From assembly GCA_964016885.1 (NCBI GenBank), contig OZ024740.1, forward strand, positions 136,462,001-136,526,000: a stretch of 64,000 nucleotides of DNA, written 5' to 3'. Both the position numbers and the translations under genes were made by a program. Under the pieces are notes generated by a model. It did no database searches. It had not been told where the DNA came from and saw only the letters and a program-made list of their open reading frames with translations. Source of the DNA: Eledone cirrhosa (Eukaryota). Below, one piece after another: positions 1-54,539 of the stretch; position 1 is the first letter of the stretch, and each line of letters starts with the position of its first letter.

Positions 1-63
1 CTAATACCTCAGAATTAAGCAGTCTGTGTTGCCTATGTACAATCTAATCTTTGATTCATTTTA

Positions 64-203
64 CCACCTCCTTAGAGGCGTGAAAAAATTGCGAAGAGCA
101 CCTTACAGGTGCCCTCCGCGGGGTATTGGGAATAGTTTTCAACTAGCAATAACCACGCCTCGGATAAACCTCATTGGCCATGGTACCGCCTCTGCGCAAA
201 GCT
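64..203 (-). ncRNA. RNU4: U4 spliceosomal snRNA, copy 1
   Basis: Reverse complement reads AGCTTTGCGCAGAGGCGGTACCATGGCCAATGAGGTTTATCCGAGGCGTGGTTATTGCTAGTTGAAAACTATTCCCAATACCCCGC...GCAATTTTTTCACGCCTCTAAGGAGGTGG. This is colinear with metazoan U4: U6 stem II, the Snu13 kink-turn, stem I, Sm site and 3' hairpin. The 3' end is approximate. Confidence 0.96.
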
Positions 204-356
204 GTCGGTAACTCATCACACCTGTTTATTTAAGGTAATATGAAAAATATTCATTCACTGATTCGTCTTCGCAGTTTATAGTTTATAATTAATTCCTATC
301 ATTCATTTCCATTAATCTTAAAATTCAGCTACTTCTACTTTGTTATGTTTAATAAT

Positions 357-773
357 TGTTTCTACTGTTGGCACAAGGCCAGCAAATATTCCAGTGTATT
401 ACTGGTACTTTATTTTATCGACCCCGTAAGGAAGAAAGGCAAAGTTAACCTCGGAGGTATTTTGAACAGAGTCCGTAAAGGGGAGTAACTGTGCTGCAAA
501 GCATGATTTGCAGCACAGTTACACCCCTTTACATACTGTGTTACGTCCGACGTATTTGTTATGTTTAATAATTGTTTCTACTTTAGGCACAAGGCCAGCA
601 AATACACAGTGCATTACTGGTACTTTATTTTATCGACCACGTAAGTATGAAAGGCAAAGTCAACCTCGGCGGGAAATAATTGTTTCTACTTTTGGCACAA
701 GGCCAGTAATTACCCAGTGCATTACTGGTACTTTATTTTATCGACCCCGTAAGGATGAAAGGCAAAGTTAACC
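357..773 (-). mobile_element. Cluster of MetaSINE-like tRNA-derived SINE pieces (2-3 per unit)
   Basis: Reverse complement contains GCCGAGGTTGACTTTGCCTTTCATCCTTACGGGGTCGATAAAATAAAGTACCAGT (Meta-domain-like). The first copy is bracketed by the direct repeat TTTGTTATGTTTAATAA. Confidence 0.7.
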
Positions 774-1160
774 TAATCTCATAACAGAAATATACAGGCC
801 CACATATTTTGTAAACAGAATAATAAATTAATTCGGTGTATCGTCTTTCTCAAGAATATTATTGACGTCACTACATAACTAATTTAATCCTTCGATGATA
901 GGTTGTTTTTGTTGTCCCTTATGGCCCTTTATTTCTGTTAGTTTTAGCTGGTTTCCTTTTCCTATTGCATTTTATAAGACTTTTCCATTGTTTTTTAATG
1001 ATTTTTGTGACAACCTGCCTTAAATTTTAAAGTTAATTCATATATATTTTAATACTATTTTCATAAAATAATGAAAAATCAGTCTTAAAAGATTTGCCAT
1101 GTATTTGGAGTTAGGGGACCATACATACATAAATGTATGTATGTATGTATATATGTATTA

Positions 1161-1763
1161 TGTCAGGTCACCAGTTGGTGCTACTGGTAACATGTATCCC
1201 AGTACAACCTGTCTCATAGTCGGGTCGTTGGCGACTAAACTGGCAACCCCACCAAGGTTTCTTGGTGAGGAGGGTGACTTTGGACATCCTGCAGGACTAA
1301 AAACAAAACCTGTCAAAGGGCAAAGGACCTCTTAAGAGTCAATGGCCATCCAAAATCACCGGGAGAGATGACCCCTTAGCCTTTGTCAAGGCAGAATTCT
1401 AGGAGAAGGAAAACTCTGATATAACACCTGCAGCCCTCATGGTATCCAATGATGTTGACTTGTTCTTTTTGGTAAATATCATCTTGGTTAAGAGAGTGGG
1501 ACTGGCTTTGTGCAGTGCCTTGCTCACTATTAAAGCTTCACGGCACAGACATTGCTTTATATCTGGAGATCTCTCTGCACTTGTCACATGCTACCATGGG
1601 CCCAGCACTATGTGTCAATAATTGTCACAAGTGTAGTGTTTGTACCAGAGTTTTCAAGTCGCTGGCTGGACTAAAAAGTCACACTCGTTCAGCGCATCGG
1701 TAGGGGTTCTCCTACATGGATATAAAGTAGTGGCCGTACTCGAAAACGAGTTGGCAGCCACCA
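1161..1763 (+). mobile_element. ~600-bp non-autonomous RTE-type retroelement with (ATGT)n tail; equivalent copies at 6726, 11701, 17226 and 22233
   Basis: RTE 5'UTR-like motif TCTAGGAGAAGGAAAACTCTGA. The 3' end encodes the C2H2 tail CSVCTRVFKSLAGLKSHTRSAHR*, followed by a GTGGC..CTCG-AAAA-CGAG..GCCAC hairpin and the microsatellite tail. Confidence 0.7.
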
Positions 1764-1848
1764 TGTATGTATGTATGTAAGTATGTATGTATGTATGTAT
1801 GTATGTATGTATGTATGTATGTATGTATGTATGTATGTATGTATGTAT

Positions 1849-2436
1849 GGTAACATGTATCCCAGTACAACCTGTCCCATGGTCGGGTCGTTGGCGACTA
1901 AACTGGCAACCCCACCAAGGTTTCGTGGTGAGGACGGTGACTTTGGACATCCTACCGGACTAAAAGCAAAGCCTGTCAAATGGCAAAGGACCTCTTAAGA
2001 GTCAATAGCCATCCAAAATCACCGGGAGAGATGACCCCTTAGCCTTTGTCAAGACAGAATTCTAGGAGAAGGAAAACTCTGATATAACACCTGCAACCCT
2101 GATGGTATCCAATGATGTTGACTTGTTCTTCTTTTTGGTAAATATTATCTTGGTTAAGAGAGTGGGACTGGCTTTGTGCAGTGCCTTTGCTCACTACAAA
2201 AGCTTCATGGCACAGGCATTGCTTTATATCTGGAGATCTCTCTGAACTTGTCGTCACATGGTACCATGGGCCCAGCACTATGTGTCAATAATTGTCACAA
2301 GTGTAGTGTTAGTACCAGAGTTTTCAAGTCGCTGGCTGGACTAAAAAGTCACACTCGTTCAGCGCATCGGTAGGAGTTCTCCTACATGGATATAAAGTAG
2401 TGGCCGTACTCGAAAACGAGTTGGCAGCCACCACCA
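1849..2436 (+). mobile_element. Second, 5'-truncated copy of the 600-bp RTE-type element (also at 12361 and 22889)
   Basis: Same sequence starting at GGTAACATG, directly after the (TATG)n tail of the first copy. Confidence 0.7.
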
Positions 2437-2870
2437 TGTGTGTATATATGTATGCATGTGTATATGTGTATATATATGTATGTGTGTATATGTATATGTT
2501 AGGTCATCAGTTGGTGCTATATTGCCCGTACATGTATTCAAAGTATGTATACATTTTTTTGGTGACACCTGCATTCATTTTTACAATAAATCCTGTATGA
2601 TAAGAGCTTATAAATTATTCAACTTAATTCTGTGTATGTTTAAGAAATGAACCCCATGACCCTTACAATATACAACAATACAGGTACATTTACTGTTTTT
2701 CATGCTTTAATGAAGGACGGTGAATTGGCAGTATTGGTTGTACCTGTATGTATGTTTGTATGTATGTTTGTATGTTTGTGTGTGTGTATGTATGTATGTA
2801 TGTATGTATGTATGTATGTATGTATGTATGTATGTATGTATGTATGTATGTATGTATGTATGTATGTATG

Positions 2871-3479
2871 TGTCAGGTCACCAGTTGGTGCTACTGGTAA
2901 CATGTATCCCAGTACAACCTGTCTCATGGTCGGGTCGTTGGCGACTAAACTGACAACCCCACCAAGGTTTCTTGATGAGGACGGTGACTTTGGACATCCT
3001 GCAGGACTAAAAACAAAACCTGTCAAAGGGCAAAGGAGCTCTTAAGAGTCAATGGCCATCCAAAATCACCGGGAGAGATGACCCCTTAGCCTTTGTCAAG
3101 GCAGAATTCTAGGAGAAGGAAAACTCTGATACAACACCTGCAACCCTGATGGTATCCAATGATGTTGACTTGTTCTTCTTTTTGGTAAATATCATCTTGG
3201 TTAAGAGAGTGGGACTGGCTTTGTGCAATGCCTTTGCTCACTATAAAAGCTTCACGGCACAGGCGTTGCTTTATATCTGGAGATCTCTCAGCACTTGTCA
3301 TCACATGGTACCATGGACCCAGCACTATGTGTCAATAATTGTCACAAGTGTAGTGTTTGTACCAGAGTTTTCAAGTCGCTGGCTGGACTAAAAAGCCACA
3401 CTCGTTCAGCGCATCGGTAGGGTTCTCCTACATGGATATAAAGTAGTGGCCGTACTCGAAACCGAGTTGGCAGCCACCA
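2871..3479 (+). mobile_element. Third copy of the 600-bp RTE-type element (also at 7931, 13375, 18427 and 23895)
   Basis: Same sequence, flanked on both sides by (TATG)n. Confidence 0.7.
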
Positions 3480-3498
3480 TGTATGTATGTATGTATGT

Positions 3499-3628
3499 TA
3501 GGGTGGTGAATTGGCAGAGTCGTTAGAACGTCGAATAAAAGTGTTTGTGATATTTGTCCCGGTCGTGGTCACCTTTGCCTTTCATCAATTCGAAGTCGAT
3601 AAATAAAGTACCAGTCTAGTACTGGGTT
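3499..3628 (+). mobile_element. Degraded MetaSINE-like SINE
   Basis: A-box-like head TGGCAGAGTCGTTAG followed by CTTTGCCTTTCATC..GTCGATAAATAAAGTACCAGT. Confidence 0.6.
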
Positions 3629-3678
3629 GGATTCTTCACCTATATCTCTTTCTCATTTCCTCTCTCTCACTTTCTAAC

Positions 3679-3881
3679 TTTCTCTGTACCCGGGTGTATT
3701 ATTCCCTGGTTACGCGTTCCTTGGTACAGATACCATCATAAGATATATTTTCATCTATCCCTTAGGTATCTGTAGCAGTCCTCCTCGGATATCGGTGAAA
3801 CAGTTAGGCCATTGATAAAAATGTTGCTAGATTAGCTTGTAGTTTTTCCCCGCTTTACAATCATATATGAACACTTATCCT
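3679..3881 (-). mobile_element. Reverse transcriptase fragment of an R4/Dong-like (RLE-type) non-LTR retrotransposon, present in every long unit
   Basis: Manual translation gives DKCSYMIVKRGKTTS*SSNIFINGLTVSPISEEDCYRYL/[frameshift]IDENISYDGICTKERVTRE(Y/*)YTRVQ. This matches the DKC..RGK...YKYLG...KERV.KEY..RV pattern of RT domains 6-7. Confidence 0.6.
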
Positions 3882-4818
3882 GTAAAGCCTGGTGTAGTCG
3901 AAGGGGCACTGTTGCGACATACGATGTGTTTGGGCATTGTAAATCTGGTGGAGCCCATCCCCTCTCCGGATCTAACACAACCGATTTCCTCTAAAGAGAG
4001 AGAGGTGGGTATAAAGAGAAAGACATTTCAATATGAATAATCGACTCCAAAGGACGACAGTCAAAGTTGACATTGACGGGGTTTGAACTAAGAGAGCCGA
4101 AACAACACGAAATACAAGAGGGTTACGGAGTATATTACCTCCTTTACAATTTGCAAGGCCTACAAGTGACGAGATAGGTCCAGTCAGTACATCGCTCGGA
4201 GAATCAAGGCGGTGCCTCCTAAATATCTAACACTAATCACATCGTAGCTCCTTTTAAATGGTGTAAAGAACACACCTCCCTCCAACATGTCTATTTTTTT
4301 TGATACTGAAAGCAACTTTGTACCGGCCATCTCGCACAAGTTTACGCATCTAATGGCAGTTTTTCTTTCTACGCTCAAGATCGTTTGTACGTTTATCTAT
4401 TGGACATGATCTATTGTTTATTTTTCTACTAAAGATGATCGATAGTATATTTTTCTTTTGACATGCTGGATTGAACGTTTTTTCCACTGGTCATCATCGA
4501 TTGTATCTTTTCCCACAGAAAATGATCGATTCTCCATTCTTTTGTTCGCCAACTTATGTACGAGCTTGTAATTCCTGGCGAAGCCCACAGCGTTCGTCTG
4601 TACACAACTGATTTCTTCCAGCGAAAGTGAGAGGGACAGTCTGAAAGATGGAAAAAAGTTTGGCATCGGCGACAATTGAACTAAAATTCGCTAAACGCCA
4701 AGACATTTCTGCTTTCTACCAACTATGCCAGTGTGGCGTCTAAATTTGTATATCGAATTCTACCTATATTTCTCAGATTAATAAAATTATAGAAGTTGTC
4801 TATTTTTGTATTTAAATA

Positions 4819-4872
4819 CCAACCTCGTGTGAGGTTTGTAAAAATTGCGTCTAGCACCTTATAGGTGGCCCT
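4819..4872 (-). pseudogene. Divergent U4 snRNA 3' half (central hairpin, Sm site, terminal hairpin); also at 9919, 15323, 20451 and 25842
   Basis: Reverse complement AGGGCCACCTATAAGGTGCTAGACGCAATTTTTACAAACCTCACACGAGGTTGG aligns to the main U4 3' part AGGGCACCTGTAAGGTGCTCTTCGCAATTTTTTCACGCCTCTAAGGAGGTGG. Confidence 0.8.
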
Positions 4873-5718
4873 TCATTTCTGTTAGTTTTAGCTGGGGTTT
4901 TTTTTCTATTGCACTTTATAAGACTTTTCCATGCTTTTGTCACATTCCTTAAATTTTACATTTAACATATATATAATGCTTTCATAAAGTAATGAAAAAT
5001 CAGATTTAATTCGTATCCGAAATGTTTCAGTGTTTACGTGCATTTGTATATATGTATGTATCTAACCCCTCGTGTATTGGTAGTGGTGTCATGACATACA
5101 GAATGTCGTGAGCATTTCATACATGGCGGAGTCATGGGGTAGGAAATGTATTTTGTGTGTAAATGTTAAACAGTTACAAAGGGAGTTATGTATTAATATA
5201 AACAAACATAGATTGGGAGGGTTCGAAATCCATATATGATCGAGCAGGCTCTAAATGTTTTCAGCCAATATACTAAAAATAACAGTAAAATCTCCCCCTA
5301 ATTATTAGTAGTGGTACAGTAAATGTTTCCGGCCGCTTCTCGCTGCACAACCCACCGTGGGGACCACTAGTTTCCTTGCTCCCTACACTTCTGATTTCCA
5401 CGATAAATTCAGAAGGACGGTGACCCACTTGAGGAAGGGGCCCGTAGGGTGGGGTAGCTGCTACAGCCGATGTCTCTAGTCATTCTCCGTGGTAATGCCT
5501 TTGTAATTTTACCTACGGTGAGGCACCGCTCAGACTGGGGTGTAGTGTCTGCCTCTCCCTTTAGTTGCATTAAATGTTTTGATTCTGTATATCCACTACC
5601 ATCAATATAACTACAACTAAATCTCATAGTTAGACAATAGCACTAACTGTAACGCCTAATACCTCAGAATTAAGCAGTCTGTGTTGCCTATGTACAATCT
5701 AATCTTTGCTTCATTTTA

Positions 5719-5858
5719 CCACCTCCTTAGAGGCGTGAAAAAATTGCGAAGAGCACCTTACAGGTGCCCTCCGCGGGGTATTGGGAATAGTTTTCAACTA
5801 GCAATAACCACGCCTCGGATAAACCTCATTGGCCATGGTACCGCCTCTGCGCAAAGCT
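5719..5858 (-). ncRNA. RNU4: U4 snRNA, copy 2
   Basis: Same sequence as copy 1. Confidence 0.96.
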
Positions 5859-8800
5859 GTCGGTAACCCATCACACCTGTTTATTTAAGGTAATATGAAA
5901 AATATTCATTCACTGATTCGTCTTCGCAGTTTATAGTTTATAATTAATTCCTATCATTCATTTCCATTAATCTTAAAATTCAGCTACTTCTACTTTGTTA
6001 TGTTTAATAATTGTTTCTACTGTTGGCACAAGGCCAGCAAATATTCCAGTGTATTACTGGTACTTTATTTTATCGACCACGTAAGGATGAAAGGCAAAGT
6101 TAACCTCGGAGGTATTTTGAACAGAGTCCGTAAAGGGGAGTAACTGTGCTGCAAAGCATGATTTGCAGCACAGTTACACCCCTTTACATACTGTGTTACG
6201 TCCGACGCATTTGTTATGTTTAATAATTGTTTCTACTTTAGGCACAAGGCCAGCAAATACACAGTGCATTACTGGTACTTTATTTTATCGACCACGTAAG
6301 TATGAAAGGCAAAGTCAACCTCGGCGGGAAATAATAATCTCATAACAGAAATATACAGGCCCACATATTTTGTAAACAGAATAATAAATTAATTCGGTAT
6401 ATCGTCTTTCTCAAGAATATTATTGACGTCACTACATAACTAATTTAATCCTTCGATGATAGGTTGTTTTTGTTGTCCCTTATGGCCCTTTATTTCTGTT
6501 AGTTTTAGCTGGTTTCCTTTTCCTATTGCATTTTATAAGACTTTTCCATTGTTTTTTAATGATTTTTGTGACAACCTGCCTTAAATTTTAAAGTTAATTC
6601 ATATATATTTTAATACTATTTTCATAAAATAATGAAAAATCAGTCTTAAAAGATTTGCCATGTATTTGGAGTTAGGGGACCATACATACATAAATGTATG
6701 TATGTATGTATGTATGTATGTATTATGTCAGGTCACCAGTTGGTGCTACTGGTAACATGTATCCCAGTACAACCTGTCTCATAGTCGGGTCGTTGGCGAC
6801 TAAACTGGCAACCCCACCAAGGTTTCTTGGTGAGGAGGGTGACTTTGGACATCCTGCAGGACTAAAAACAAAACCTGTCAAAGGGCAAAGGAGCTCTTAA
6901 GAGTCAATGGCCATCCAAAATCACCGGGAGAGATGACCCCTTAGCCTTTGTCAAGGCAGAATTCTAGGAGAAGGAAAACTCTGATATAACACCTGCAGCC
7001 CTCATGGTATCCAATGATGTTGACTTGTTCTTTTTGGTAAATATCATCTTGGTTAAGAGAGTGGGACTGGCTTTGTGCAGTGCCTTTGCTCACTATAAAA
7101 GCTTCATGGCACAGGCATTGCTTTATATCTGGAGATCTCTCTGAACTTGTCGTCACATGGTACCATGGGCCTAGCACTGTGTCAATAATTGTCACAAGTG
7201 TAGTGTTAGTACCAGAGTTTTCAAGTCGCTGGCTGGACTAAAAAGTCACACTCGTTCAGCGTATCGGTAGGAGTTCTCCTACATGGATATAAAGTAGTGG
7301 CCGTACTCGAAAACGAGTTGGCAGCCACCACCATGTGTGTATATATGTATGCATGTGTATATGTGTGTATATATGTATGTGTGTATATGTATATGTTAGG
7401 TCATCAGTTGGTGCTATATTGCCCGTACATGTATTCAAAGTATGTATACATTTTTTTGGTGACACCTGCATTCATTTTTACAATAAATCCTGTATGATAA
7501 GAGCTTATAAATTATTCAACTTAATTCTGTGTATGTTTAAGAAATGAACCCCATGACCCTTACAATATACAACAATACAGGTACATTTACTGTTTTTCAT
7601 GCTTTAATGAAGGACGGTGAATTGGCAGTATTGGTTGTACCTGTATGTATGTTTGTGTGTATGTTTGTATGTTTGTGTGTGTGTATGTATGTATGTATGT
7701 ATGTATGTATGTATGTATGTATGTATGTATGTATGTGTTTGTATGTGTGTTTATATATATATATATATGTGCATGTGTGAGGTATGTATGTATGTATGTA
7801 TGTATGTATGTATGTATGTATGTATGTATGTATGTATGTATGCATGTATGTATGTATGTATGTATGTATGTATGTATGTATGTGTGTATGTATTTATGTA
7901 TGTATGTATGTATGTATGTATGTATGCATGTGTCAGGTCACCAGTTGGTGCTACTGGTAACATGTATCCCAGTACAACCTGTCTCATGGTCGGGTCGTTG
8001 GCGACTAAACTGACAACCCCACCAAGGTTTCTTGGTGAGGACGGTGACTTTGGACATCCTGCAGGACTAAAAACAAAACCTGTCAAAGGGCAAAGGACCT
8101 CTTAAGAGTCAATGGCCATCCAAAATCACCGGGAGAGATGACCCCTTAGCCTTTGTCAAGGCAGAATTCTAGGAGAAGGAAAACTCTGATACAACACCTG
8201 CAACCCTGATGGTATCCAATGATGTTGACTTGTTCTTCTTTTTGGTAAATATCATCTTGGTTAAGAGAGTGGGACTGGCTTTGTGCAATGCCTTTGCTCA
8301 CTATAAAAGCTTCACGGCACAGACATTGCTTTATAACTGGAGATCTCTCTGCACTTGTCACATGGTACCATGGGCCCAGCACTATGTGTCAATAATTGTC
8401 ACAAGTGTAGTGTTTGTACCAGAGTTTTCAAGTCGCTGGCTGGACTAAAAATTCACACTTGTTCAACGCATCAGTAGGGGTTCTCCTACATGGATATAAA
8501 GTAGTGGCCGTATTCGAAAACGAGTTGGCAGCCACCATGTATGTATGTATGTATGTATGTATGTATGTATGTATGTATGTATGTATGTATGTATGTTAGG
8601 GTGGTGAATTGGCAGAATCGTTAGAACGTTGAATAAAAGTGTTTGTGATATTTGTCCCGGTCGTGGTCACCTTTGCCTTTCATCAATTCGAAGTCGATAA
8701 ATAAAGTACCAGTCTAGTACTGGGTTGGATTCTTCACCTATATCTCTTTCTCATTTCCTCTCTCTCACTTTCTAACTTTCTCTGTACCCGGGTGTATTAT

Positions 8801-10818: not shown

Positions 10819-10958
10819 CCACCTCCTTAGAGGCGTGAAAAAATTGCGAAGAGCACCTTACAGGTGCCCTCCGCGGGGTATTGGGAATAGTTTTCAACTA
10901 GCAATAACCACGCCTCGGATAAACCTCATTGGCCATGGTACCGCCTCTGCGCAAAGCT
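10819..10958 (-). ncRNA. RNU4: U4 snRNA, copy 3
   Basis: Same sequence as copy 1. Confidence 0.96.
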
Positions 10959-16222: not shown

Positions 16223-16362
16223 CCACCTCCTTAGAGGCGTGAAAAAATTGCGAAGAGCACCTTACAGGTGCCCTCCGCGGGGTATTGGGAATAGTTTTCA
16301 ACTAGCAATAACCACGCCTCGGATAAACCTCATTGGCCATGGTACCGCCTCTGCGCAAAGCT
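16223..16362 (-). ncRNA. RNU4: U4 snRNA, copy 4
   Basis: Same sequence as copy 1. Confidence 0.96.
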
Positions 16363-19300
16363 GTCGGTAAACCATCACACCTGTTTATTTAAGGTAATAT
16401 GAAAAATATTCATTCACTGATTCGTCTTCGCAGTTTATAGTTTATAATTAATTCCTATCATTCATTTCCATTAATCTTAAAATTCAGCTACTTCTACTTT
16501 GTTATGTTTAATAATTGTTTCTACTGTTGGCACAAGGCCAGCAAATATTTCAGTGTATTACTGGTACTTTATTTTATCGACCACGTAAGGATGAAAGGCA
16601 AAGTTAACCTCGGAGGTATTTTGAACAGAGTCCGTAAAGGGGAGTAACTGTGCTGCAAAGCATGATTTGCAGCACAGTTACACCCCTTTACATACTGTGT
16701 TACGTCCGACGCATTTGTTATGTTTAATAATTGTTTCTACTTTAGGCACAAGGCCAGCAAATACACAGTGCATTACTGGTACTTTATTTTATCGACCACG
16801 TAAGTATGAAAGGCAAAGTCAACCTCGGCGGGAAATAATAATCTCATAACAGAAATATACAGGCCCACATATTTTGTAAACAGAATAATAAATTAATTCG
16901 GTGTATCGTCTTTCTCAAGAATATTATTGACGTCACTACATAACTAATTTAATCCTTCGATGATAGGTTGTTTTTGTTGTCCCTTATGGCCCTTTATTTC
17001 TGTTAGTTTTAGCTGGTTTCCTTTTGCTATTGCATTTTATAAGACTTTTCCATTGTTTTTTAATGATTTTTGTGACAACCTGCCTTAAATTTTAAAGTTA
17101 ATTCATATATATTTTAATACTATTTTCATAAAATAATGAAAAATCAGTCTTAAAAGATTTGCCATGTATTTGGAGTTAGGGGACCATACATACATAAATG
17201 TATGTATGTATGTATGTATGTATTATGTCAGGTCACCAGTTGGTGCTACTGGTAACATGTATCCCAGTACAACCTGTCTCATAGTCGGGTCGTTGGCGAC
17301 TAAACTGGCAACCCCACCAAGGTTTCTTGGTGAGGAGGGTGACTTTGGACATCCTGCAGGACTAAAAACAAAACCTGTCAAAGGGCAAAGGAGCTCTTAA
17401 GAGTCAATGGCCATCCAAAATCACCGGGAGAGATGACCCCTTAGCCTTTGTCAAGGCAGAATTCTAGGAGAAGGAAAACTCTGATATAACACCTGCAGCC
17501 CTCATGGTATCCAATGATGTTGACTTGTTCTTTTTGGTAAATATCATCTTGGTTAAGAGAGTGGGACTGGCTTTGTGCAGTGCCTTTGCTCACTATAAAA
17601 GCTTCATGGCACAGGCATTGCTTTATATCTGGAGATCTCTCTGAACTTGTCGTCACATGGTACCATGGGCCTAGCACTGTGTCAATAATTGTCACAAGTG
17701 TAGTGTTAGTACCAGAGTTTTCAAGTCGCTGGCTGGACTAAAAAGTCACACTCGTTCAGCGTATCGGTAGGAGTTCTCCTACATGGATATAAAGTAGTGG
17801 CCGTACTCGAAAACGAGTTGGCAGCCACCACCATGTGTGTATATATGTATGCATGTGTATATGTGTGTATATATGTATGTGTGTATATGTATATGTTAGG
17901 TCATCAGTTGGTGCTATATTGCCCGTACATGTATTCAAAGTATGTATACATTGTTTTGGTGACACCTGCATTCATTTTTACAATAAATCCTGTATGATAA
18001 GAGCTTATAAATTATTCAACTTAATTCTGTGTATGTTTAAGAAATGAACCCCATGACCCTTACAATATACAACAATACAGGTACATTTACTGTTTTTCAT
18101 GCTTTAATGAAGGACGGTGAATTGGCAGTATTGGTTGTACCTGTATGTATGTTTGTGTGTATGTTTGTATGTTTGTGTGTGTGTATGTATGTATGTATGT
18201 ATGTATGTATGTATGTATGTATGTATGTATGTATGTATGTATGTGTTTGTATGTGTGTTTATATATATATATATATGTGCATGTGTGAGGTATGTATGTA
18301 TGTATGTATGTATGTATGTATGTATGTATGTATGTATGTATGTATGTATGCATGTATGTATGTATGTATGTATGTATGTATGTATGTATTTATGTATGTA
18401 TGTATGTATGTATGTATGTATGCATGTGTCAGGTCACCAGTTGGTGCTACTGGTAACATGTATCCCAGTACAACCTGTCTCATGGTCGGGTCGTTGGCGA
18501 CTAAACTGACAACCCCACCAAGGTTTCTTGGTGAGGACGGTGACTTTGGACATCCTGCAGGACTAAAAACAAAACCTGTCAAAGGGCAAAGGACCTCTTA
18601 AGAGTCAATGGCCATCCAAAATCACCGGGAGAGATGACCCCTTAGCCTTTGTCAAGGCAGAATTCTAGGAGAAGGAAAACTCTGATACAACACCTGCAAC
18701 CCTGATGGTATCCAATGATGTTGACTTGTTCTTCTTTTTGGTAAATATCATCTTGGTTAAGAGAGTGGGACTGGCTTTGTGCAATGCCTTTGCTCACTAT
18801 AAAAGCTTCACGGCACAGACATTGCTTTATAACTGGAGATCTCTCTGCACTTGTCACATGGTACCATGGGCCCAGCACTATGTGTCAATAATTGTCACAA
18901 GTGTAGTGTTTGTACCAGAGTTTTCAAGTCGCTGGCTGGACTAAAAATTCACACTTGTTCAACGCATCAGTAGGGGTTCTCCTACATGGATATAAAGTAG
19001 TGGCCGTATTCGAAAACGAGTTGGCAGCCACCATGTATGTATGTATGTATGTATGTATGTATGTATGTATGTATGTATGTATGTATGTATGTATGTATGT
19101 ATGTATGTATGTATGTATGTATGTATGTTAGGGTGGTGAATTGGCAGAATCGTTAGAACGTTGAATAAAAGTGTTTGTGATATTTGTCCCGGTCGTGGTC
19201 ACCTTTGCCTTTCATCAATTCGAAGTCGATAAATAAAGTACCAGTCTAGTACTGGGTTGGATTCTTCACCTATATCTCTTTCTCATTTCCTCTCTCTCAC

Positions 19301-21350
19301 TTTCTAACTTTCTCTGTACCCGGGTGTATTATTCCCTGGTTACGCGTTCCTTGGTACAGATACCATCATAGGATATATTTTCATCTATCCCTTAGGTATC
19401 TGTAGCAGTCCTCCTCGGATATCGGTGAAACAGTTAGGCCATTGATAAAAATGTTGCTAGATTAGCTTGTAGTTTTTCCCCGCTTTACAATGGTATATGA
19501 ACATTTATCCTGTAAAGCCTGGTGTAGTCGAAGGGGCACCGTTGCCACATACGATGTGTTTGGACATTATAAATCTGGTGGAGCCCATCCCCTCTCCGGA
19601 TCTAACACAACCGATTTACTCTAAAGAGAGAAAGAGGTGGGTATAAAGAGAAAGACATTTCAATATAAATAATCGACTCCAAAGGACGACAGTCAAAGTT
19701 GACATCGACGGGGTTTGAACTAAGAGAGCCGAAACAACACGAAATACAAGAGGGTTACTGAGTATATTACCTCCTTTACAATTTGCAAGGCCTACAAGTG
19801 AAGAGATAGGTCCAGTCAGTACATCGCTCGGAGAATCAAGGCGGTGCCACCTAAATATCTAACACTAATCACATCGTAGCTCCTTTTAAATGGTGTAAAG
19901 AACACACCTCCCTCCAACAGGTCTATTTTTTTTGATACTGAAAGCAACTTTGTACCGGCCATCTCGCACAAGTTTACGCATCTAATGGCAGTTTTTCTTT
20001 CTACGCTCAAGATCGTTTGTACGTTTATCTATTGGACATGATCTATTGTTTATTTTTCTACTAAAGATGATCGATAGTATATTTTTCTTTTGACATGCTG
20101 GATTGAACGTTTTTTCCACTGGTCATCATCGATTGTATCTTTTCCCACAGAAAATGATCGATTCTCCATTCTTTTGTTCGCCAACTTATGTACGAGCTTG
20201 TAATTCCTGGCGAAGCCCACAGCGTTCGTCTGTACACAACTGATTTCTTCCAGCGAAAGTGAGAGGGACAGTCTGAAAGATGGAAAAAAGTTTGGCATCG
20301 GCGACAATTGAACTAAAATTCGCTAAACGCCAAGACATTTCTGCTTTCTACCAACTATGCCAGTGTGGCGTCTAAATTTGTATATCGAATTCTACCTATA
20401 TTTCTCAGATTAATAAAATTATAGAAGTTGTCTATTTTTGTATTTAAATACCAACCTCGTGTGAGGTTTGTAAAAATTGCGTCTAGCACCTTATAGGTGG
20501 CCCTTCATTTCTGTTAGTTTTAGCTGGGGTTTTTTTTCTATTGCACTTTATAAGACTTTTCCATGCTTTTGTCACATTCCTTAAATTTTACATTTAACAT
20601 ATATATAATGCTTTCATAAAGTAATGAAAAATCAGATTTAATTCGTATCCGAAATGTTTCAGTGTTGTCGTGCATTTGTATATATGTATGTATCTAACCC
20701 CTCGTGTATTGGTAGTGGTGTCATGACATACAGAATGTCGTGAGCATTTCATACATGGCGGAGTCATGGGGTAGGAAATGTATTTTGTGTGTAAATGTTA
20801 AACAGTTACAAAGGGAGTTATGTATTAATATAAACAAACATAGATTGGGAGGGTTCGAAATCCATATATGATCGAGCAGGCTCTAAAGGTTTTCAGCCAA
20901 TATACTAAAAATAACAGTAAAATCTCCCCCTAATTATTAGTAGTGGTACAGTAAATGTTTCCGGCCGCTTCTCGCTGCACAACCCTCCGTGGGGACCTCT
21001 AGTTTCCTTGCTCCCTACACTTCTGATTTCCACGATAAATTCAGAAGGACGGTGACCCACTTGAGGAAGGGGCCCGTAGGGTGGGGTAGCTGCTACAGCC
21101 GATGTCTCTAGTCATTCTCCGTGGTAATGCCTTTGTAATTTTACCTACGGTGAGGCACCGCTCAGACTGGGGTGTAGCGCCTGCCCCTCCCTTTAGTTGC
21201 ATTAAATGTTTTGATTCTGTATATCCACTACCATCAATATAACTACAACTAAATCTCATAGTTAGACAATAGCAATAACTGTAACGCCTAATACCTAAGA
21301 ATTAAGCAGTCTGTGTTGCCTATGTACAATCTAATCTTCGATTCATTTTA

Positions 21351-21490
21351 CCACCTCCTTAGAGGCGTGAAAAAATTGCGAAGAGCACCTTACAGGTGCC
21401 CTCCGCGGGGTATTGGGAATAGTTTTCAACTAGCAATAACCACGCCTCGGATAAACCTCATTGGCCATGGTACCGCCTCTGCGCAAAGCT
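21351..21490 (-). ncRNA. RNU4: U4 snRNA, copy 5
   Basis: Same sequence as copy 1. Confidence 0.96.
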
Positions 21491-24400
21491 GTCGGTAACC
21501 CATCACCCCTGTTTATTTAAGGTAATATGAAAAATATTCATTCACTGATTCGTCTTCGCAGTTTATAGTTTATAATTAATTCCTATCATTCATTTCCATT
21601 AATCTTAAAATTCAGCTACTTCTACTTTGTTATGTTTAATAATTGTTTCTACTGTTGGCACAAGGCCAGCAAATATTCCAGTGTATTACTGGTACTTTAT
21701 TTTATCGACCCCGTAAGGATGAAAGGCAAAGTCAACCTCGGCGGGAAATAATTGTTTCTACTTTAGGCACAAGGCCAGCAAATACACAGTGCATTACTGG
21801 TACTTTATTTTATCGACCCCGTAAGGATGAAAGGCAAAGTTAACCTAATCTCATAACAGAAATATACAGGCCCACATATTTTGTAAACAGAATAATAAAT
21901 TAATTCGGTGTATCGTCTTTCTCAAGAATATTATTGACGTCACTACATAACTAATTTAATCCTTCGATGATAGGTTGTTTTTGTTGTCCCTTATGGCCCT
22001 TTATTTCTGTTAGTTTTAGCTGGTTTCCTTTTCCTATTGCATTTTATAAGACTTTTCCATTGTTTTTTAATGATTTTTGTGACATCCTGCCTTAAATTTT
22101 AAAGTTAATTCATATATATTTTAATACTATTTTCATAAAATAATGAAAAATCAGTCTTAAAAGATTTGCCATGTATTTGGAGTTAGGGGACCATACATAC
22201 ATAAATGTATGTATGTATGTATGTATGTATTATGTCAGGTCACCAGTTGGTGCTACTGGTAACATGTATCCCAGTACAACCTGTCTCATAGTCGGGTCGT
22301 TGGCGACTAAACTGGCAACCCCACCAAGGTTTCTTGGTGAGGAGGGTGACTTTGGACATCCTGCAGGACTAAAAACAAAACCTGTCAAAGGGCAAAGGAG
22401 CTCTTAAGAGTCAATGGCCATCCAAAATCACCGGGAGAGATGACCCCTTAGCCTTTGTCAAGGCAGAATTCTAGGAGAAGGAAAACTCTGATATAACACC
22501 TGCAGCCCTCATGATATCCAATGATGTTGACTTGTTCTTTTTGGTAAATATCATCTTGGTTAAGAGAGTGGGACTGGCTTTGTGCAGTGCCTTGCTCACT
22601 ATTAAAGCTTCACGGCACAGACATTGCTTTATATCTGGAGATCTCTCTGCACTTGTCACATGCTACCATGGGCCCAGCACTATGTGTCAATAATTGTCAC
22701 AAGTGTAGTGTTTGTACCAGAGTTTTCAAGTCGCTGGCTGGACTAAAAAGTCACACTCGTTCAGCGCATCGGTAGGGGTTCTCCTACATGGATATAAAGT
22801 AGTGGCCGTACTCGAAAACGAGTTGGCAGCCACCATGTATGTATGTATGTATGTATGTATGTATGTATGTATGTATGTATGTATGTATGGTAACATGTAT
22901 CCCAGTACAACCTGTCCCATGGTCGGGTCGTTGGCGACTAAACTGGCAACCCCACCAAGGTTTCGTGGTGAGGACGGTGACTTTGGACATCCTACCGGAC
23001 TAAAAGCAAAGCCTGTCAAATGGCAAAGGACCTCTTAAGAGTCAATAGCCATCCAAAATCACCGGGAGAGATGACCCCTTAGCCTTTGTCAAGACAGAAT
23101 TCTAGGAGAAGGAAAACTCTGATATAACACCTGCAACCCTGATGGTATCCAATGATGTTGACTTGTTCTTCTTTTTGGTAAATATTATCTTGGTTAAGAG
23201 AGTGGGACTGGCTTTGTGCAGTGCCTTTGCTCACTACAAAAGCTTCATGGCACAGGCATTGCTTTATATCTGGAGATCTCTCTGAACTTGTCGTCACATG
23301 GTACCATGGGCCCAGCACTATGTGTCAATAATTGTCACAAGTGTAGTGTTAGTACCAGAGTTTTCAAGTCGCTGGCTGGACTAAAAAGTCACACTCGTTC
23401 AGCGCATCGGTAGGAGTTCTCCTACATGGATATAAAGTAGTGGCCGTACTCGAAAACGAGTTGGCAGCCACCACAATGTGTGTATATATGTATGCATGTG
23501 TATATGTGTATATATATGTATGTGTGTATATGTATATGTTAGGTCATCAGTTGGTGCTATATTGCCCGTACATGTATTCAAAGTATGTATACATTTTTTT
23601 GGTGACACCTGCATTCATTTTTACAATAAATCCTGTATGATAAGAGCTTATAAATTATTCAACTTAATTCTGTGTATGTTTAAGAAATGAACCCCATGAC
23701 CCTTACAATATACAACAATACAGGTACATTTACTGTTTTTCATGCTTTAATGAAGGACGGTGAATTGGCAGTATTGGTTGTACCTGTATGTATGTTTGTA
23801 TGTATGTTTGTATGTTTGTGTGTGTGTATGTATGTATGTATGTATGTATGTATGTATGTATGTATGTATGTATGTATGTATGTATGTATGTATGTGTCAG
23901 GTCACCAGTTGGTGCTACTGGTAACATGTATCCCAGTACAACCTGTCTCATGGTCGGGTCGTTGGCGACTAAACTGACAACCCCACCAAGGTTTCTTGAT
24001 GAGGACGGTGACTTTGGACATCCTGCAGGACTAAAAACAAAACCTGTCAAAGGGCAAAGGAGCTCTTAAGAGTCAATGGCCATCCAAAATCACCGGGAGA
24101 GATGACCCCTTAGCCTTTGTCAAGGCAGAATTCTAGGAGAAGGAAAACTCTGATACAACACCTGCAACCCTGATGGTATCCAATGATGTTGACTTGTTCT
24201 TCTTTTTGGTAAATATCATCTTGGTTAAGAGAGTGGGACTGGCTTTGTGCAATGCCTTTGCTCACTATAAAAGCTTCACGGCACAGGCGTTGCTTTATAT
24301 CTGGAGATCTCTCAGCACTTGTCATCACATGGTACCATGGACCCAGCACTATGTGTCAATAATTGTCACAAGTGTAGTGTTTGTACCAGAGTTTTCAAGT

Positions 24401-26743
24401 CGCTGGCTGGACTAAAAAGCCACACTCGTTCAGCGCATCGGTAGGGTTCTCCTACATGGATATAAAGTAGTGGCCGTACTCGAAACCGAGTTGGCAGCCA
24501 CCATGTATGTATGTATGTATGTTAGGGTGGTGAATTGGCAGAGTCGTTAGAACGTCGAATAAAAGTGTTTGTGATATTTGTCCCGGTCGTGGTCACCTTT
24601 GCCTTTCATCAATTCGAAGTCGATAAATAAAGTACCAGTCTAGTACTGGGTTGGATTCTTCACCTATATCTCTTTCTCATTTCCTCTCTCTCACTTTCTA
24701 ACTTTCTCTGTACCCGGGTGTAATATTCCCTGGTTACGCGTTCCTTGGTACAGATACCATCATAAGATATATTTTCATCTATCCCTTAGGTATCTGTAGC
24801 AGTCCTCCTCGGATATCGGTGAAACAGTTAGGCCATTGATAAAAATGTTGCTAGATTAGCTTGTAGTTTTTCCCCGCTTTACAATCATATATGAACACTT
24901 ATCATGTAAAGCCTGGTGTAGTCGAAGGGGCACTGTTGCGACATACGATGTGTTTGGGCATTGTAAATCTGGTGGAGCCCATCCCCTCTCCGGATCTAAC
25001 ACAACCGATTTCCTCTAAAGAGAGAGAGGTGGGTATAAAGAAAAAGACATTTCAATATGAATAATCGACTCCAAAGGACGACAGTCAAAGTTGACATTGA
25101 CGGGGTTTGAACTAAGAGAGCCGAAACAACACGAAATACAACAGGGTTACTGAGTATATTACCTCCTTTACAATTTGCAAGGCCTACAAGTGACGAGATA
25201 GGTCCAGTCAGTACATCGCTCGGAGAATCAAGGCGGTGCCACCTAAATATCTAACACTAATCACATCGTAGCTCCTTTTAAATGGTGTAAAGAACACACC
25301 TCCCTCCAACAGGTCTACTTTTTTTGATACTGAAAGCAACTTTGTCCCGGCCATCTCGCACAAGTTTACGCATCTAATGGCAGTTTTTCTTTCTACGCTC
25401 AAGATCGTTTGTACGTTTATCTATTGGACATGATCTATTGTTTATTTTTCTACTAAAGATGATCGATAGTATATTTTTCTTTTGACATGCTGGATTGAAC
25501 GTTTTTTCCACTGGTCATCATCGATTGTATCTTTTCCCACAGAAAATGATCGATTCTCCATTCTTTTGTTCGCCAACTTATGTACGAGCTTGTAATTCCT
25601 GGCGAAGCCCACAGCGTTCGTCTGTACACAACTGATTTCTTCCAGCGAAAGTGAGAGGGACAGTCTGAAAGATGGAAAAAAGTTTGGCATCGGCGACATT
25701 TGAACTAAAATCGCTAAACGCCAAGACATTTCTGCTTTCTACCAACTATGCCAGTGTGGCGTCTAAATTTGTATATCGAATTCTACCTATATTTCTCAGC
25801 TTAATAAAATTATAGAAGTTGTCTTTTTTTGTATTTAAATACCAACCTCGTGTGAGGTTTGTAAAAATTGCGTCTAGCACCTTATAGGTGGCCCTTCATT
25901 TCTGTTAGTTTTAGCTGGGGTTTTTTTTCTATTGCACTTTATAAGACTTTTCCATGCTTTTGTCACATTCCTTAAATTTTACATTTAACATATATATAAT
26001 GCTTTCATAAAGTAATGAAAAATCAGATTTAATTCGTATCCGAAATGTTTCAGTGTTGTCGTGCATTTGTATATATGTATGTATCTAACCTCTCGTGTAT
26101 TGGTAGTGGTGTCATGACATACAGAATGTCGTGAGCATTTCATACATGGCGGAGTCATGGGGTAGGAAATGTATTTTGTGTGTAAATGTTGAACAGTTAC
26201 AAAGGGAGTTATGTATTAATATAAACAAACATAGATTGGGAGGGTTCGAAATCCATATATGATCGAGCAGGCTCTAAAGGTTTTCAGCCAATATACTAAA
26301 AATAACAGTAAATCTCCTCCTAATAATTAGTAGTGGTACAGTAAATAATGTTTCCGGCCGCTTCTCGCTGCACAGCCCTCCGTGGGGACCTCTAGTTTCC
26401 TTGCTCCCTACACTTCTGATTTCCTCGATAAATTCAGAAAGACGGTGACCCGCTTGAGGTAGGAGCCCGTAGGGTGGGGTAGCTGCTACAGCCGATGTCT
26501 CTGGTCATTCTCCGTGGTAATGCCTTTGCAATTTTACCTACGGTGTGGCACCGCTCAGACTGGGGTGTAGTGTCTGCTTCTCCCTTTAGTTGCATTAAAT
26601 GTTTTGATTTTGTATATCCACTACCATCAATATAACTACAACTAAATCTCATAGTTAGACAATAGCAATAACTGTAACGCCTAATACCTCAGAATTAAGC
26701 AGTCTGTGTTGCCTATGTACAATCTAATCTTTGATTCATTTTA

Positions 26744-26883
26744 CCACCTCCTTAGAGGCGTGAAAAAATTGCGAAGAGCACCTTACAGGTGCCCTCCGCT
26801 GGGTATTGGGAATAGTTTTCAACTAGCAATAACCACGCCTCGGATAAACCTCATTGGCCATGGTACCGCCTCTGCGCAAAGCT
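26744..26883 (-). ncRNA. RNU4: U4 snRNA, copy 6 (one substitution)
   Basis: As copy 1 but ACCCAGCGG instead of ACCCCGCGG in the central region. Confidence 0.94.
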
Positions 26884-27693
26884 GTCGGTAACCCATCACA
26901 CCTGTTTATTTAAGGTAATATGATAAATATTCATTCACTGATTCGTCTTCGCAGTTTATAGTTTATAATTAATTCCTATCATTCATTTCCATTAATCTTA
27001 AAATTCAGCTACTTCTACTTTGTTATGTTTAATAATAATCTCATAACAGAAATATACAGGCCCACATATTTTGTAAACACAATAGTAAATTACTTCCGTG
27101 TATCGTCATTCTCAAGAGTATTATTGACGTCACTACATAACTAATTTCTTCCTTCGGTGATTGGTTGTCCCTTCATTTCTGTTAGTTTTAGGGGGGGGGG
27201 GGTTCTATTGCACTTTATAAGACTTTTCTATGGTGTTTTAATGCTTTTGTCACATTCCTTAAATTTTACATTTAACATATATATAATGCTTTCATAAAGT
27301 AATGAAAAATCAGATTTAATTCGTAACCGAAATGTTTCAGTGTTGTGCATTTGTATATATGTATGTATCTAACCCCTCGTGTATTGGTAGTGGTGTCATG
27401 ACATACAGAATGTCGTGAGCATTTCATACATGGCGGAGTCATGGGGTAGGAAATGTATTTTGTGCGTAAATGTTAAACAGATACAAAGGGAGTTATGTAT
27501 TAATATAAACAAACATAGATTGGGAGGGTTCGAAATCCATATATGATCGAGCAGGCTCTAAAGGTTTTCAGCCAATATACTAAAAATACAACTAAATCTC
27601 ATAGTTAGCCAATAACAATAACTGTAGCGCCTAATACCTAAGAATTATGCAGTCTGTGTTGCCTATATATAATCTAATCTTTGATTCATTTTA

Positions 27694-27833
27694 CCACCTC
27701 CTTAGAGGTGCGAAAAAATTGCGAAGAGCACCTTACAGGTGCCCTCCGCGGGGTATTGGGAATAGTTTTCAACTAGCAATAACCACGCCTCGGATATACC
27801 TCATTGGCCATGGTACCGCCTCTGCGCAAAGCT
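27694..27833 (-). ncRNA. RNU4: U4 snRNA, copy 7 (terminal variant with a different upstream flank)
   Basis: Full-length U4. The 5' loop is GGTATATCC and the 3' hairpin CACCTC-TAAG-GAGGTG is fully Watson-Crick. Homology to the array stops exactly at +1. Confidence 0.94.
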
Positions 27834-28339
27834 AAAGTTTAAATTTAGTGTTGTGTATTTAACTTCACAGTATTGTTTATTACATACAGGTCTAAGCTTT
27901 TAGTTTTTTTACTTTTATTAATTTTCTTTTGTAGATTACAGACATTTTATCATTGCTTTACATGTATTTTTTTATTTTTAATGATTTTCCCTATATAATA
28001 TTTTTTGTTATTTAAATGTTCACTATAACTGATTGCAAATGTTTCTAATTACCTATATAACTTTACTCCCTGCGATTTGCTTTCTATATTGTGGGAGTGG
28101 GAGGAAGGGCAGTGAATAAAATTAACTTCCTGTTATATAGAAGTTTGTATGAAAACAACATGGACAGAATTTTATCGAAGAACAAAAAGTAGTAAAGAAT
28201 AATCGCTTAACACTGGTAAAATAGACTAAAATACATATATAGATATCGATACAACTGACGAACACCGGTCCCAAGAATTAAGGTTCATAAAGCGTATATA
28301 ACTAAGATAAATAACATTTCAAATTGTTCACAATTCTTG

Positions 28340-28775
28340 CGGAATGAAAATGTGAACACATACAATAAATACAATTAACTATTGTTAGGAACTTTACAAA
28401 TACAACGCACCAAAATATACGATAAAAATGAGAGAAAGAAAAAAAAGGGGGGGGGGGACAAAAGCGACCATCAATTATGACAATATTATCTTAAAAAATA
28501 GGTGTGGGCTGGAATATCATGGAAGGTACTGTGTTGGGCTGTTTCAATCATGCCTGTCACTGATTTATATACCTTCATTGCTTGATTAAATTATTGGTCA
28601 CTATTTTATAGAGAATATATATTGTAGTATGACAATCGGCCGCACATCATGGTAGTTTTTGATCCCCCCACCCCGTTTTTTTTTTCTCTCCCTTTGATCG
28701 TATATTTTGGTGCGTTGTATTTGTTAATTGTATTTATATGTTTATATTTTCATTCTGAAATTCGGTCAAATAATT
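28340..28775. repeat. Imperfect inverted repeat (~130-bp arms), MITE/foldback-like
   Basis: CAAATACAACGCACCAAAATATACGAT (~28397) is the reverse complement of ATCGTATATTTTGGTGCGTTGTATTTG (~28697). The A/G-runs are mirrored by C/T-runs. Confidence 0.7.
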
Positions 28776-33592: not shown

Positions 33593-33642
<50 letters not shown>

Positions 33643-33643
<1 letters not shown>

Positions 33644-33973: not shown

Positions 33974-33984
33974 CCAGCTCTATT

Positions 33985-54413: not shown

Positions 54414-54447
<34 letters not shown>

Positions 54448-54539
54448 ATTATATATATATTTATATTATATATATATATATTTATATTATATATATATAT
54501 ATATTTATATTATATATATATATATATATATATTTATAT

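Follow-up and report, generated by a model that had tools for sequence, protein, structure and literature searches.

Among the closest described systems is the primate RNU2 locus, a U2 snRNA array reportedly treated by Pavelitz et al. (cited in PMC4291461). It holds 5-82 copies of a 6.1-kb unit (PMC4132748). Arrays of U snDNA carrying U1, U2 and U5, often together with 5S, are also described from fish, molluscs and cnidarians (PMC3464664, PMC10532334, PMC5011920), and in a characid fish U4 probes give a single FISH site (PMC8056886). Additionally, a frog study describes a 138-bp satellite with U4/U5 similarity (PMC12054243), and the giant-squid paper gives ~1,300 U2 loci, with no U4 count in its text or searched supplements. 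Outside the survey of Marz et al. 2008 and two papers by Azambuja on the U4 snDNA of fish, which may bear on the point, the literature searched gave no cephalopod U4 array or sequenced U4-only tandem unit. A U4 motif search returned 10 loci in metagenome contigs and none in viral or prokaryote contigs. L010, a metagenome contig from another animal, carries a 1751-bp unit of U6 and U4. Its two ends share an exact repeat of 127 nt, and with this overlap it is likely a collapsed tandem unit, although the circular contig could be another kind of assembly-graph cycle. Given this unit and the characid FISH site (PMC8056886), the preliminary description, in taking U4 to be usually low-copy and dispersed, overstates how rare U4 arrays are.

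We analysed a window of 64,000 nucleotides from the octopod Eledone cirrhosa. Scanning the whole window with cmscan gave eight matches at gathering score, of which seven are U4 (RF00015, model 1-138 of 138; 117.4-121 bits against a cut-off of 46; E 5e-27 to 5e-26) and lie without exception on the minus strand; the eighth is a weak tRNA fragment. The seven full-length minus-strand copies claimed beforehand were thus recovered, every one with a significant full-length match to the Rfam model, and seven is a minimum because the array continues past the left window edge. ARAGORN returned 0 tRNAs, and an E-value Rfam scan of 20500-34000 gave no further ncRNA, its 27 non-U4 rows all lying below cut-offs and being mostly microsatellite look-alikes. 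As previously described for five of the copies, copies 1-5 show no differences over 137 nt; copy 6 has one change (nt 84) and copy 7 three, at nt 37 in a loop, at nt 123 in a linker and at nt 125, where a G-U pair becomes A-U. Judging from the folds, 4/4 of these coding changes are structure-neutral. The 5' stem-loop with its kink-turn, the Sm site, the 3' stem and the terminal hairpin are present in the covariance-model alignments and in the folds of copies 2, 6 and 7, in which both stem-loops and the 3' stem fold alike. Copies 2 and 7 pair with the U6 of L010, from another animal and not the species' own, as stems I and II in a Y-shaped cofold, with a binding energy of -19.9 kcal/mol against -12.1 and -13.1 for the best of 300 shuffles. 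The intact U6-pairing stems, kink-turn and 3' hairpin read earlier from the letters are therefore confirmed. Between copies 7 and 5 the gene differs at 3/137 positions and the flank at 24/540, which gives no significant sign of constraint on the coding part (Fisher p = 0.17). We rejected a processed U4 retropseudogene, as the copies are full length, no poly(A) tail lies behind any copy in the array, and the 3' flank is common to all seven.

The U4 start-to-start spacings are 5655, 5100, 5404, 5128, 5393 and 950 bp (Table 1). The five long units lie head-to-tail, are 98.4-99.9% identical over 4.7-5.4 kb, and alternate between a type A (5.4-5.7 kb) and a type B (5.1 kb), forming a ~10.5-kb dimer. 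The short end unit lacks the LINE, SINE and 316-bp insertion and aligns by BLAST at two places on the long unit, with 93% and 80% identity. The preliminary description missed this dimer and the 950-bp end unit, as well as the relics of U4 3' halves and the different upstream region of copy 7. The far end of the window is ~10 kb of (AT)n.

Table 1. Positions of U4 copies, repeat units, spacer elements and upstream features in the window.
Feature	Position	Strand	Remarks
U4 snRNA gene copy 1	67..203	-	RF00015 121 bits; same as copies 2-5
U4 snRNA gene copy 2	5722..5858	-	RF00015 121 bits
U4 snRNA gene copy 3	10822..10958	-	RF00015 121 bits
U4 snRNA gene copy 4	16226..16362	-	RF00015 121 bits
U4 snRNA gene copy 5	21354..21490	-	RF00015 121 bits
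U4 snRNA gene copy 6	26747..26883	-	117.8 bits; changed nt 84 unpaired in fold
U4 snRNA gene copy 7, end copy	27697..27833	-	117.4 bits; own upstream region
Unit U1, 5655 bp, A type with B-type promoter-side end (mosaic)	204..5858	-	alignment, gap patterns
Unit U2, 5100 bp, B type	5859..10958	-	99.86% to unit U4, 7 substitutions/5084 columns
Unit U3, 5404 bp, A type	10959..16362	-	99.4-99.5% to units U1 and U5
Unit U4, 5128 bp, B type	16363..21490	-	
Unit U5, 5393 bp, A type, edge unit	21491..26883	-	26 private substitutions
Short end unit, 950 bp	26884..27833	-	copy 7 + 3' flank + copy 6 upstream region; BLAST map against unit U5, alignments
Three tandem ~650-bp non-LTR retrotransposon 3' ends, (ATGT)n tails	22205..24522	+	95.5-97.8% between copies
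Triple LINE 3' ends in other A units	1133-3498, 11673-14002		
LINE 3' ends, two copies each, in B units	6694-8600, 17198-19128		
Two 108-bp pieces of dispersed SINE-like repeat, between flank and promoter	21638..21846	.	relatives 38153-38212, 44766-44860
316-bp GC-richer insertion in U4 3' flank of long units	26316..26631	.	absent from short unit
Decayed U4 3' half (U4 nt ~90-137)	4817..4870	-	78% identical; BLAST E 2e-6; fold; alignment
Further U4 3'-half relics	9917-9970, 15321-15374, 20449-20502, 25840-25893	-	relic in 5/5 long units
Upstream region P, common to copies 1-6, predicted promoter	26884..27036	-	98.7% to 21491-21643
TATA-like box, -30..-20 of copy 6, unchanged in copies 1-5	26903..26913	-	10/11 bases as in copy 7's box
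Unique upstream region of copy 7, predicted ancestral-type promoter	27834..27903	-	box 27852-27862; aligns to L010 U4 upstream
CRE-like palindrome, -249..-242 of copy 6	27125..27132	.	also 863, 6424, 11403, 16928, 21935

Like primate RNU2, the octopod array consists of head-to-tail multi-kb units (6.1 kb in RNU2, 5.1-5.7 kb here) with one Pol II-type snRNA gene per unit and near-identical spacers, and the concerted evolution of RNU2 has its counterpart in homogenised units with signs of exchange. It differs from RNU2 in carrying U4 and not U2, in its alternating 10.5-kb dimer, in its short end unit and in the other upstream region of its end gene; copy-number variation is described for RNU2. 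Clustered tandem snRNA genes are shared with the fish, mollusc and cnidarian arrays, and a U4 cluster can be mapped in a characid fish; the units of those arrays, however, measure for the most part ~1-6 kb and combine several gene types, whereas the octopod array has U4 alone plus a U4 relic, and is available as sequence where the fish U4 data considered here are FISH sites and not sequenced units. Compared with L010, the U4 is 97.7% identical over the first 87 nt and shares a box at about -30, but L010 includes U6, has a short unit and differs in the U4 3' domain.

Next, we considered the spacer. LINE-end blocks make up 43% of the A unit, and 54% together with the SINE-like pieces and the 316-bp insertion, so that of the earlier claim of a spacer that is mostly transposable-element debris, repeat derivation stands for about half of it and "mostly" does not. 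The retrotransposon 3' ends, presumably of the RTE clade, encode a C2H2 finger before a stop, with Pfam E-values of 6e-5 to 1e-4 that stay under the gathering score; a protein search with the zinc-finger piece gave no matches. The 108-bp pieces probably derive from a SINE. As a MITE the 316-bp insertion was rejected, since its terminal inverted similarity is weak. The U4 relic, 22% diverged, retains an Sm-like run and the terminal hairpin, and no significant alignment links its 3' flank to the functional one, whether 70 nt (p = 0.37) or 120 nt (p = 0.71) are compared.

All long units are distinguishable, with 95 variable ungapped columns (49 transitions, 46 transversions) against 7 small indel blocks, plus large type-specific indels. 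Signs of exchange between units comprise the mosaic unit U1, a chimeric LINE copy in B and a tract round U4 in which A and B are not told apart. The LINE copy in B units reads as copy a and then copy b, a pattern that marks type B as the product of a clean recombination between these two. None of 36 A/B-diagnostic sites falls inside a 2002-column tract, of 4724 columns, round U4 (0 of 100000 permutations, the tract being defined and tested on the same data, only through the longest-run statistic). Inside this 2-kb tract unit U3 differs from units U2 and U4 by 1 and 2 and from the edge unit U5 by 29; outside it the differences from units U2, U4 and U5 are 40, 42 and 3. Polishing with multi-mapped reads could mimic such a tract. 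Overall, the concertedly evolving multi-kb array of the preliminary description is upheld as regards homogenised units with exchange signs.

Upon examining the upstream regions, we observed that the break between copies 6 and 7 lies exactly at +1, with 5/25 bases alike up to -1, and that the 3' flank is common to both, gene and flank being 94-95% identical. The likeness of the two boxes at -30, 10/11 bases, is reached by 6 and 11 of 4710 background 70-mers. Beyond this box P does not resemble the copy 7 region (score 15, equalled by 2219/4710 background 70-mers), nor does it resemble the L010 U4 upstream (score 23, equalled by 612/4710). The copy 7 region aligns to the L010 U4 upstream with a score of 45 (reached by 0/5000 shuffles, 3/4710 background 70-mers and 2/2042 GC-matched ones), this being the best of six pairings tried and L010 a single outgroup, a metagenome contig. 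Within L010 itself, U4 and U6 carry a common box at about -30. No perfect octamer was found within 500 nt upstream of copies 2, 3, 6 and 7, where there is one 7-of-8 partial, and the literature searched yielded no PSE consensus for this taxon. The likeness of the 3' box to the vertebrate consensus is only loose. The CRE-like palindrome is displaced to -452, -573 or -667 in long units by the SINE-like insertions; a role as enhancer is a guess from its position.

We favour, with a probability of about 0.6, a real U4 array. Two U4 genes that lay next to each other and had different promoters would have undergone unequal crossing-over, and the resulting macrosatellite, probably expanded and homogenised by later exchange, is predicted to be a source of extra U4 RNA. 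An old paralogue pair or short cluster, arranged as promoter X-U4-flank-promoter P-U4, would have recombined inside the U4 coding region, the sole common sequence, giving internal copies P-U4-flank and an end copy that retains X. Two ~950-bp units may then have been fused into the long unit by a deletion, with the U4 3'-half relic as its remnant, a step that is loose because the relic's 3' flank is not significantly alignable with the functional flank. LINE 3' ends, SINE pieces and the 316-bp element would subsequently have inserted and been carried along; a crossover between adjacent LINE ends would have lost one, giving type B, before the A+B dimer was amplified; and in the inner units the 2 kb surrounding U4 may recently have been made alike by conversion or crossover. 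As is usual for Pol II snRNA genes, the array copies are predicted to be transcribed from P, and their RNAs to undergo 3'-box processing, Sm assembly and TMG capping. In another animal, loci L004 and L009, which share one assembly prefix, have matching U4 5' sequences and unrelated upstream sequences, and so show the same state as copies 6 and 7, alike in U4 and differing upstream. With its seven or more genes, the array probably belongs to an ordinary class of small-RNA gene arrays whose copies stay alike through recombination.

In sea urchin and Xenopus the early snRNA class is the tandem one. Developmentally switched classes are described for Xenopus and chicken U4 and sea-urchin U1/U2 (PMC4291461), and as there, two variants of one snRNA here have different upstream regions. 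A two-class system, in which the end gene with the ancestral promoter would be constitutive and the amplified copies, behind another promoter, a high-output oocyte or embryo class, homogenisation being centred on the 2 kb that contain the gene, is a tentative and rather doubtful extension. If true, it would be the first such case found for a mollusc or a sequenced U4 array, with the switch readable from small-RNA data at three nucleotides; nt 37, 123 and 125 are allele-marking sites for telling promoter use. The array indicates that amplification into an RNU2-like macrosatellite extends to U4 and is not confined to U1 and U2. It also offers a readable record of start and turnover, in the end gene with its own upstream, the 950-bp early unit, the U4 relic, the LINE-mediated A/B split and the gene-centred homogenised tract. 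Since the role of U4 is unchanged and snRNA arrays are well known, its value is that of a clean case and not of new biology, unless the two classes prove developmentally switched.

The array could instead be real and largely silent, with the true promoter in copy 7 only and copies 1-6 behind former downstream flank, through duplication or a copied read-through transcript from +1, which would make it a U4 macrosatellite without output. We consider this unlikely. The exclusive match of copy 7's region to the L010 U4 upstream points that way, as do the homology that begins exactly at +1, the SINE-like pieces that in long units have landed 150 bp ahead of the start, and the snRNA copies without promoter reported in fish (PMC10532334); yet P retains a -30 box like that of copy 7, and copies 1-6 are intact whereas the relics beside them in the units have diverged by 22%. 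A copied transcript also sits poorly with the missing poly(A) tails, and the L010 match, as one outgroup's best of six pairings, counts for less. Sea-urchin PSEs, moreover, reportedly function with minimal sequence similarity (study cited in PMC1761439).

It is improbable that the seven copies overstate the genome through an assembly in which one or two loci, such as a pair of haplotypes, were duplicated or interleaved. Across 5084 columns units U2 and U4 do differ by just 7 substitutions, the strict alternation of A and B could in principle reflect two haplotypes, transitions are few among private sites (3/17 in unit U1, 1/5 in unit U4), and the (AT)n at the window's far end is a hard region. 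However, there are five distinct long units and a differently built short one, the 95 substitutions to 7 small indels are unlike long-read error, units U1 and U5 have in common 6 variants absent from units U2-U4, and in B two LINE copies are cleanly recombined. Collapse, leaving more copies than shown, is a commoner assembly error than duplication.

Finally, it is very improbable that U4 travelled with a retrotransposon, as the head or tail of a LINE or SINE, and that the array consists of such elements in tandem: every long unit has two to three LINE 3' ends, but these run antisense to U4 and keep a distance of at least 0.7 kb from every U4 copy, 36 of 49 frames of at least 50 aa in the spacer of unit U3 gave no reverse transcriptase or endonuclease, and copies 6 and 7 are separated by a short unit that lacks a LINE. 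A SINEU-like, snRNA-bearing LINE or SINE was rejected, the snRNA not being fused on the same strand to an element.

No RNA run was among the matches listed for a word search with 24700-29500, which listed seven sequencing runs under one organism label, three of them carrying 0.61-0.63 of the words. These three are one sample, possibly the assembly's own source and so not independent; the other runs comprise one with a small share and three RAD-seq additions.

We found seven full-length U4 snRNA genes on the minus strand, numbered here as copies 1–7 by rising position, scoring 117.4–121 bits against a cut-off of 46 bits in an Rfam scan of the whole window at gathering threshold; this significant covariance-model result is the check that the preliminary description had proposed, and besides U4 the scan returned one weak tRNA fragment. 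Copies 1–5 are identical in sequence, as had been claimed, copy 6 carries one change (nt 84) and copy 7, at the end of the array, carries three (nt 37, 123 and 125). Copies 2, 6 and 7 fold alike, the change at nt 125 replacing a G-U pair by A-U, which supports the claim of intact structure. The U6-pairing stems, also described as intact, are confirmed as well: when copies 2 and 7 are paired with the U6 of L010, a metagenome contig of animal source used as outgroup and the one source of a related U6 available, stems I and II form at −19.9 kcal/mol, against −12.1 and −13.1 for the best of 300 shuffles. The preliminary observation of the array thus holds throughout. Divergence in gene and flank did not differ significantly (3/137 versus 24/540, p = 0.17). 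The U4 array is genuine and well preserved. Concertedly evolving tandem arrays of snRNA genes are an established kind, and we regard this one as probably active, with its copies predicted to be transcribed (probability about 0.6). Its readable history and two upstream regions lift it slightly above routine.

Coordinates of the features in the window and in the outgroup contig
Feature	Position	Strand	Basis
U4 copies 1–7	67–203, 5722–5858, 10822–10958, 16226–16362, 21354–21490, 26747–26883, 27697–27833	−	Rfam
U4 3′-half relic	4817–4870 and four equivalents		BLAST-type match to U4, E 2e-6
54-bp palindrome	477–530, ~6132–6185, ~16636–16689		DNA fold −25.5 kcal/mol, z −9.7
DnaJ B4/B5 (Hsp40) first coding exon	40297–41091	+	94% to Octopus vulgaris protein, 88% to Argonauta hians
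Broken LINE copies	49164–51556; 34992–37398	+; −	Pfam RVT_1 E 2.5e-16, PHD E 2.8e-7
(AT)n satellite	51654–52380, 53512–64000		GC near 0
Partial tRNA-like matches	33648–33700, 52390–52447	+	
L010 (metagenome contig, animal)	1–1878		
L010 U6	342–447	+	
L010 U4	1239–1377	+	

Start-to-start distances between the copies are 5655, 5100, 5404, 5128, 5393 and 950 bp. Identity among the five long units is 98.4–99.9%, and type A (units U1, U3, U5) alternates with type B (units U2, U4) as a dimer of about 10.5 kb, with 7 substitutions in 5084 columns between U2 and U4 versus 41–76 between A and B. On the U4 strand, each long unit starts with U4 and its 3′ flank, which is split by an insertion of 316 bp. 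The decayed remains of a U4 3′ half (the relic) follow, then about 1.3 kb of unassigned spacer and the ~650-bp repeats, three of them in A and two in B. A further, diverged copy of part of the flank (80%) and SINE-like pieces lead to 153 bp of an upstream region, P, before the next U4. The relic, found in 5/5 long units, is 78% identical to U4 over 54 nt. Despite several changes it retains an Sm-like run and a terminal hairpin that pairs well, which hints that its source was a diverged U4 paralogue that once functioned; a short microhomology marks the point where the relic joins the flank. The 950-bp unit is without the insertion, the ~650-bp repeats and the SINE-like pieces, and since it maps at two places on the long unit (93% and 80%), this suggests that the latter may be two short units fused. 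Copies 1, 2 and 4, and no others, have a near-perfect palindrome about 270–330 bp upstream, between two SINE-like pieces.

On the plus strand, the ~650-bp repeats read as the close of an open frame containing a C2H2 finger, followed by a stop and an (ATGT)n tail; of 36 scanned spacer frames, two matched Pfam zf-C2H2, at E 6e-5 and 1e-4, short of the gathering score. Such a frame end, stop and short-repeat tail form the ending of 5′-truncated non-LTR retrotransposons, and these LINE ends are probably of the RTE clade. They occupy 43% of the A unit, or 54% when the SINE-like pieces and the insertion are added; the spacer is thus repeat-derived as previously stated, though about half rather than mostly.

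Copies 1–6 share P, and the upstream region of copy 7 is unrelated and AT-rich (5/25 bases match as far as −1), yet over gene and 3′ flank copy 7 is 94–95% identical to the others. As only the transcribed part is common to both, the boundary exactly at +1 would be the expected trace of unequal crossing-over between two U4 paralogues. Two metagenome loci of one assembly prefix, L004 and L009, likewise have matching U4 5′ sequences and unrelated upstream sequences. An array that is silent, with output driven only at copy 7, is unlikely; it would agree with the last 70 upstream bases of copy 7 matching the L010 U4 upstream at a score of 45 (reached by 0/5000 dinucleotide shuffles, 3/4710 real 70-mers and 2/2042 GC-matched ones), whereas P scores 23 (612/4710 real 70-mers), a likeness that we treat as a lead because it is the best of six pairings with one outgroup. 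It is opposed by a TATA-like box at −30, of which P and copy 7 share 10/11 bases, a level attained by 6 and 11 of 4710 background 70-mers; the U4 and U6 of L010 share a 10-base box in the same place, at about −31 to −22. A CRE-like palindrome, found at −249 in copy 6, is moved to −452, −573 or −667 in the long units, and any regulatory role for it is conjecture; in insects, snRNA promoters have two parts, the second lying near that place (excerpt of PMC1761439). No mollusc PSE consensus was found in the literature search. U4 isoform switching in development is described for Xenopus and chicken (excerpt of PMC4291461); that the array represents a novel case, a developmental switch between two U4 classes, is rather unlikely, but directly testable because the upstream regions differ and three sites mark the alleles.

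It is very unlikely that assembly inflation explains the copy number. Copy number and unit order are those given by the assembly, and transitions are scarce among private sites (3/17 in unit U1, 1/5 in unit U4), but all five long units are distinguishable, 95 ungapped columns vary (49 transitions, 46 transversions) against 7 indel blocks of at most 3 bases, and six variants are common to U1 and U5, so that the differences are not the pattern of one locus written repeatedly or of long-read error. Three public runs of one sample, which may be the assembly's own source, contain 0.61–0.63 of sampled words of 24700–29500. A U4-bearing retroelement as the nature of the array was tested and rejected, with next to no probability.

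Exchange between the units of the array is also apparent. In type B one LINE copy stands in place of two (a and b), following copy a over the initial ~390 bases and copy b from there on, so type B would have been born from a crossover between neighbouring LINE ends; unit U1 is an A type with the promoter-side end of a B type. Columns separating A from B number 36 of 4724 ungapped, and a stretch of 2002 columns round U4, spanning about −220 to +1780, contains none of them (a run of that length arose in 0/100000 permutations). Within this tract, 1 and 2 columns separate U3 from U2 and U4, and 29 separate it from the edge unit U5; beyond the tract these counts are 40, 42 and 3. Homogenisation round the gene thus appears more recent than in the repeat-rich half for the inner units, with U5 bypassed, a pattern that polishing with multi-mapped reads could mimic. 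The concertedly evolving array of the preliminary description therefore stands as regards homogenised units with signs of exchange (their identity, the mosaic U1, the chimeric LINE copy and the tract).

According to excerpts of the cited sources, RNU2 has 5–82 copies of a 6.1-kb unit (PMC4132748), multi-copy snRNA genes are generally said to evolve in concert (PMC4291461), U snDNA is tandem in fish (PMC10532334, PMC3464664), and Hydractinia carries U1/U2 inside a ~700-copy histone repeat (PMC5011920). The view of U4 as low-copy holds in these excerpts for Drosophila, with three genes (PMC4291461), while human has over 90 copies, mostly defective (PMC8457000). In a characid fish, however, U4 probes give one FISH site (PMC8056886), and the ends of L010 overlap exactly by 127 nt, so that this contig, in which the partner snRNAs U6 and U4 are joined, is probably a tandem unit of 1751 bp that has collapsed (one of ten metagenome loci fetched, 1/8 examined for repeats). 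Six of the ten loci have U4 cut by the contig end (L001, L002, L004, L005, L006, L009), as expected of multi-copy identical genes. The literature searched described neither a U4 array from a cephalopod nor a sequenced unit with U4 as its one gene, a weak negative, the major survey (Marz et al. 2008) and most subscription papers lying outside its scope.

Elsewhere in the window, the DnaJ B4/B5 exon offers a handle for the orthologous locus; by its protein identities, the DNA belongs to an octopod, though probably another species than O. vulgaris. Two inverted broken LINE copies, ~92% identical, carry a reverse transcriptase and a PHD-like finger and belong to a different family from the LINE ends of the array. 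An irregular (AT)n satellite extends over more than 10 kb with short repeat fragments within, and the partial tRNA-like matches, each heading a ~340-bp dispersed repeat beside (AT)n runs, are likely tRNA-derived SINE heads.
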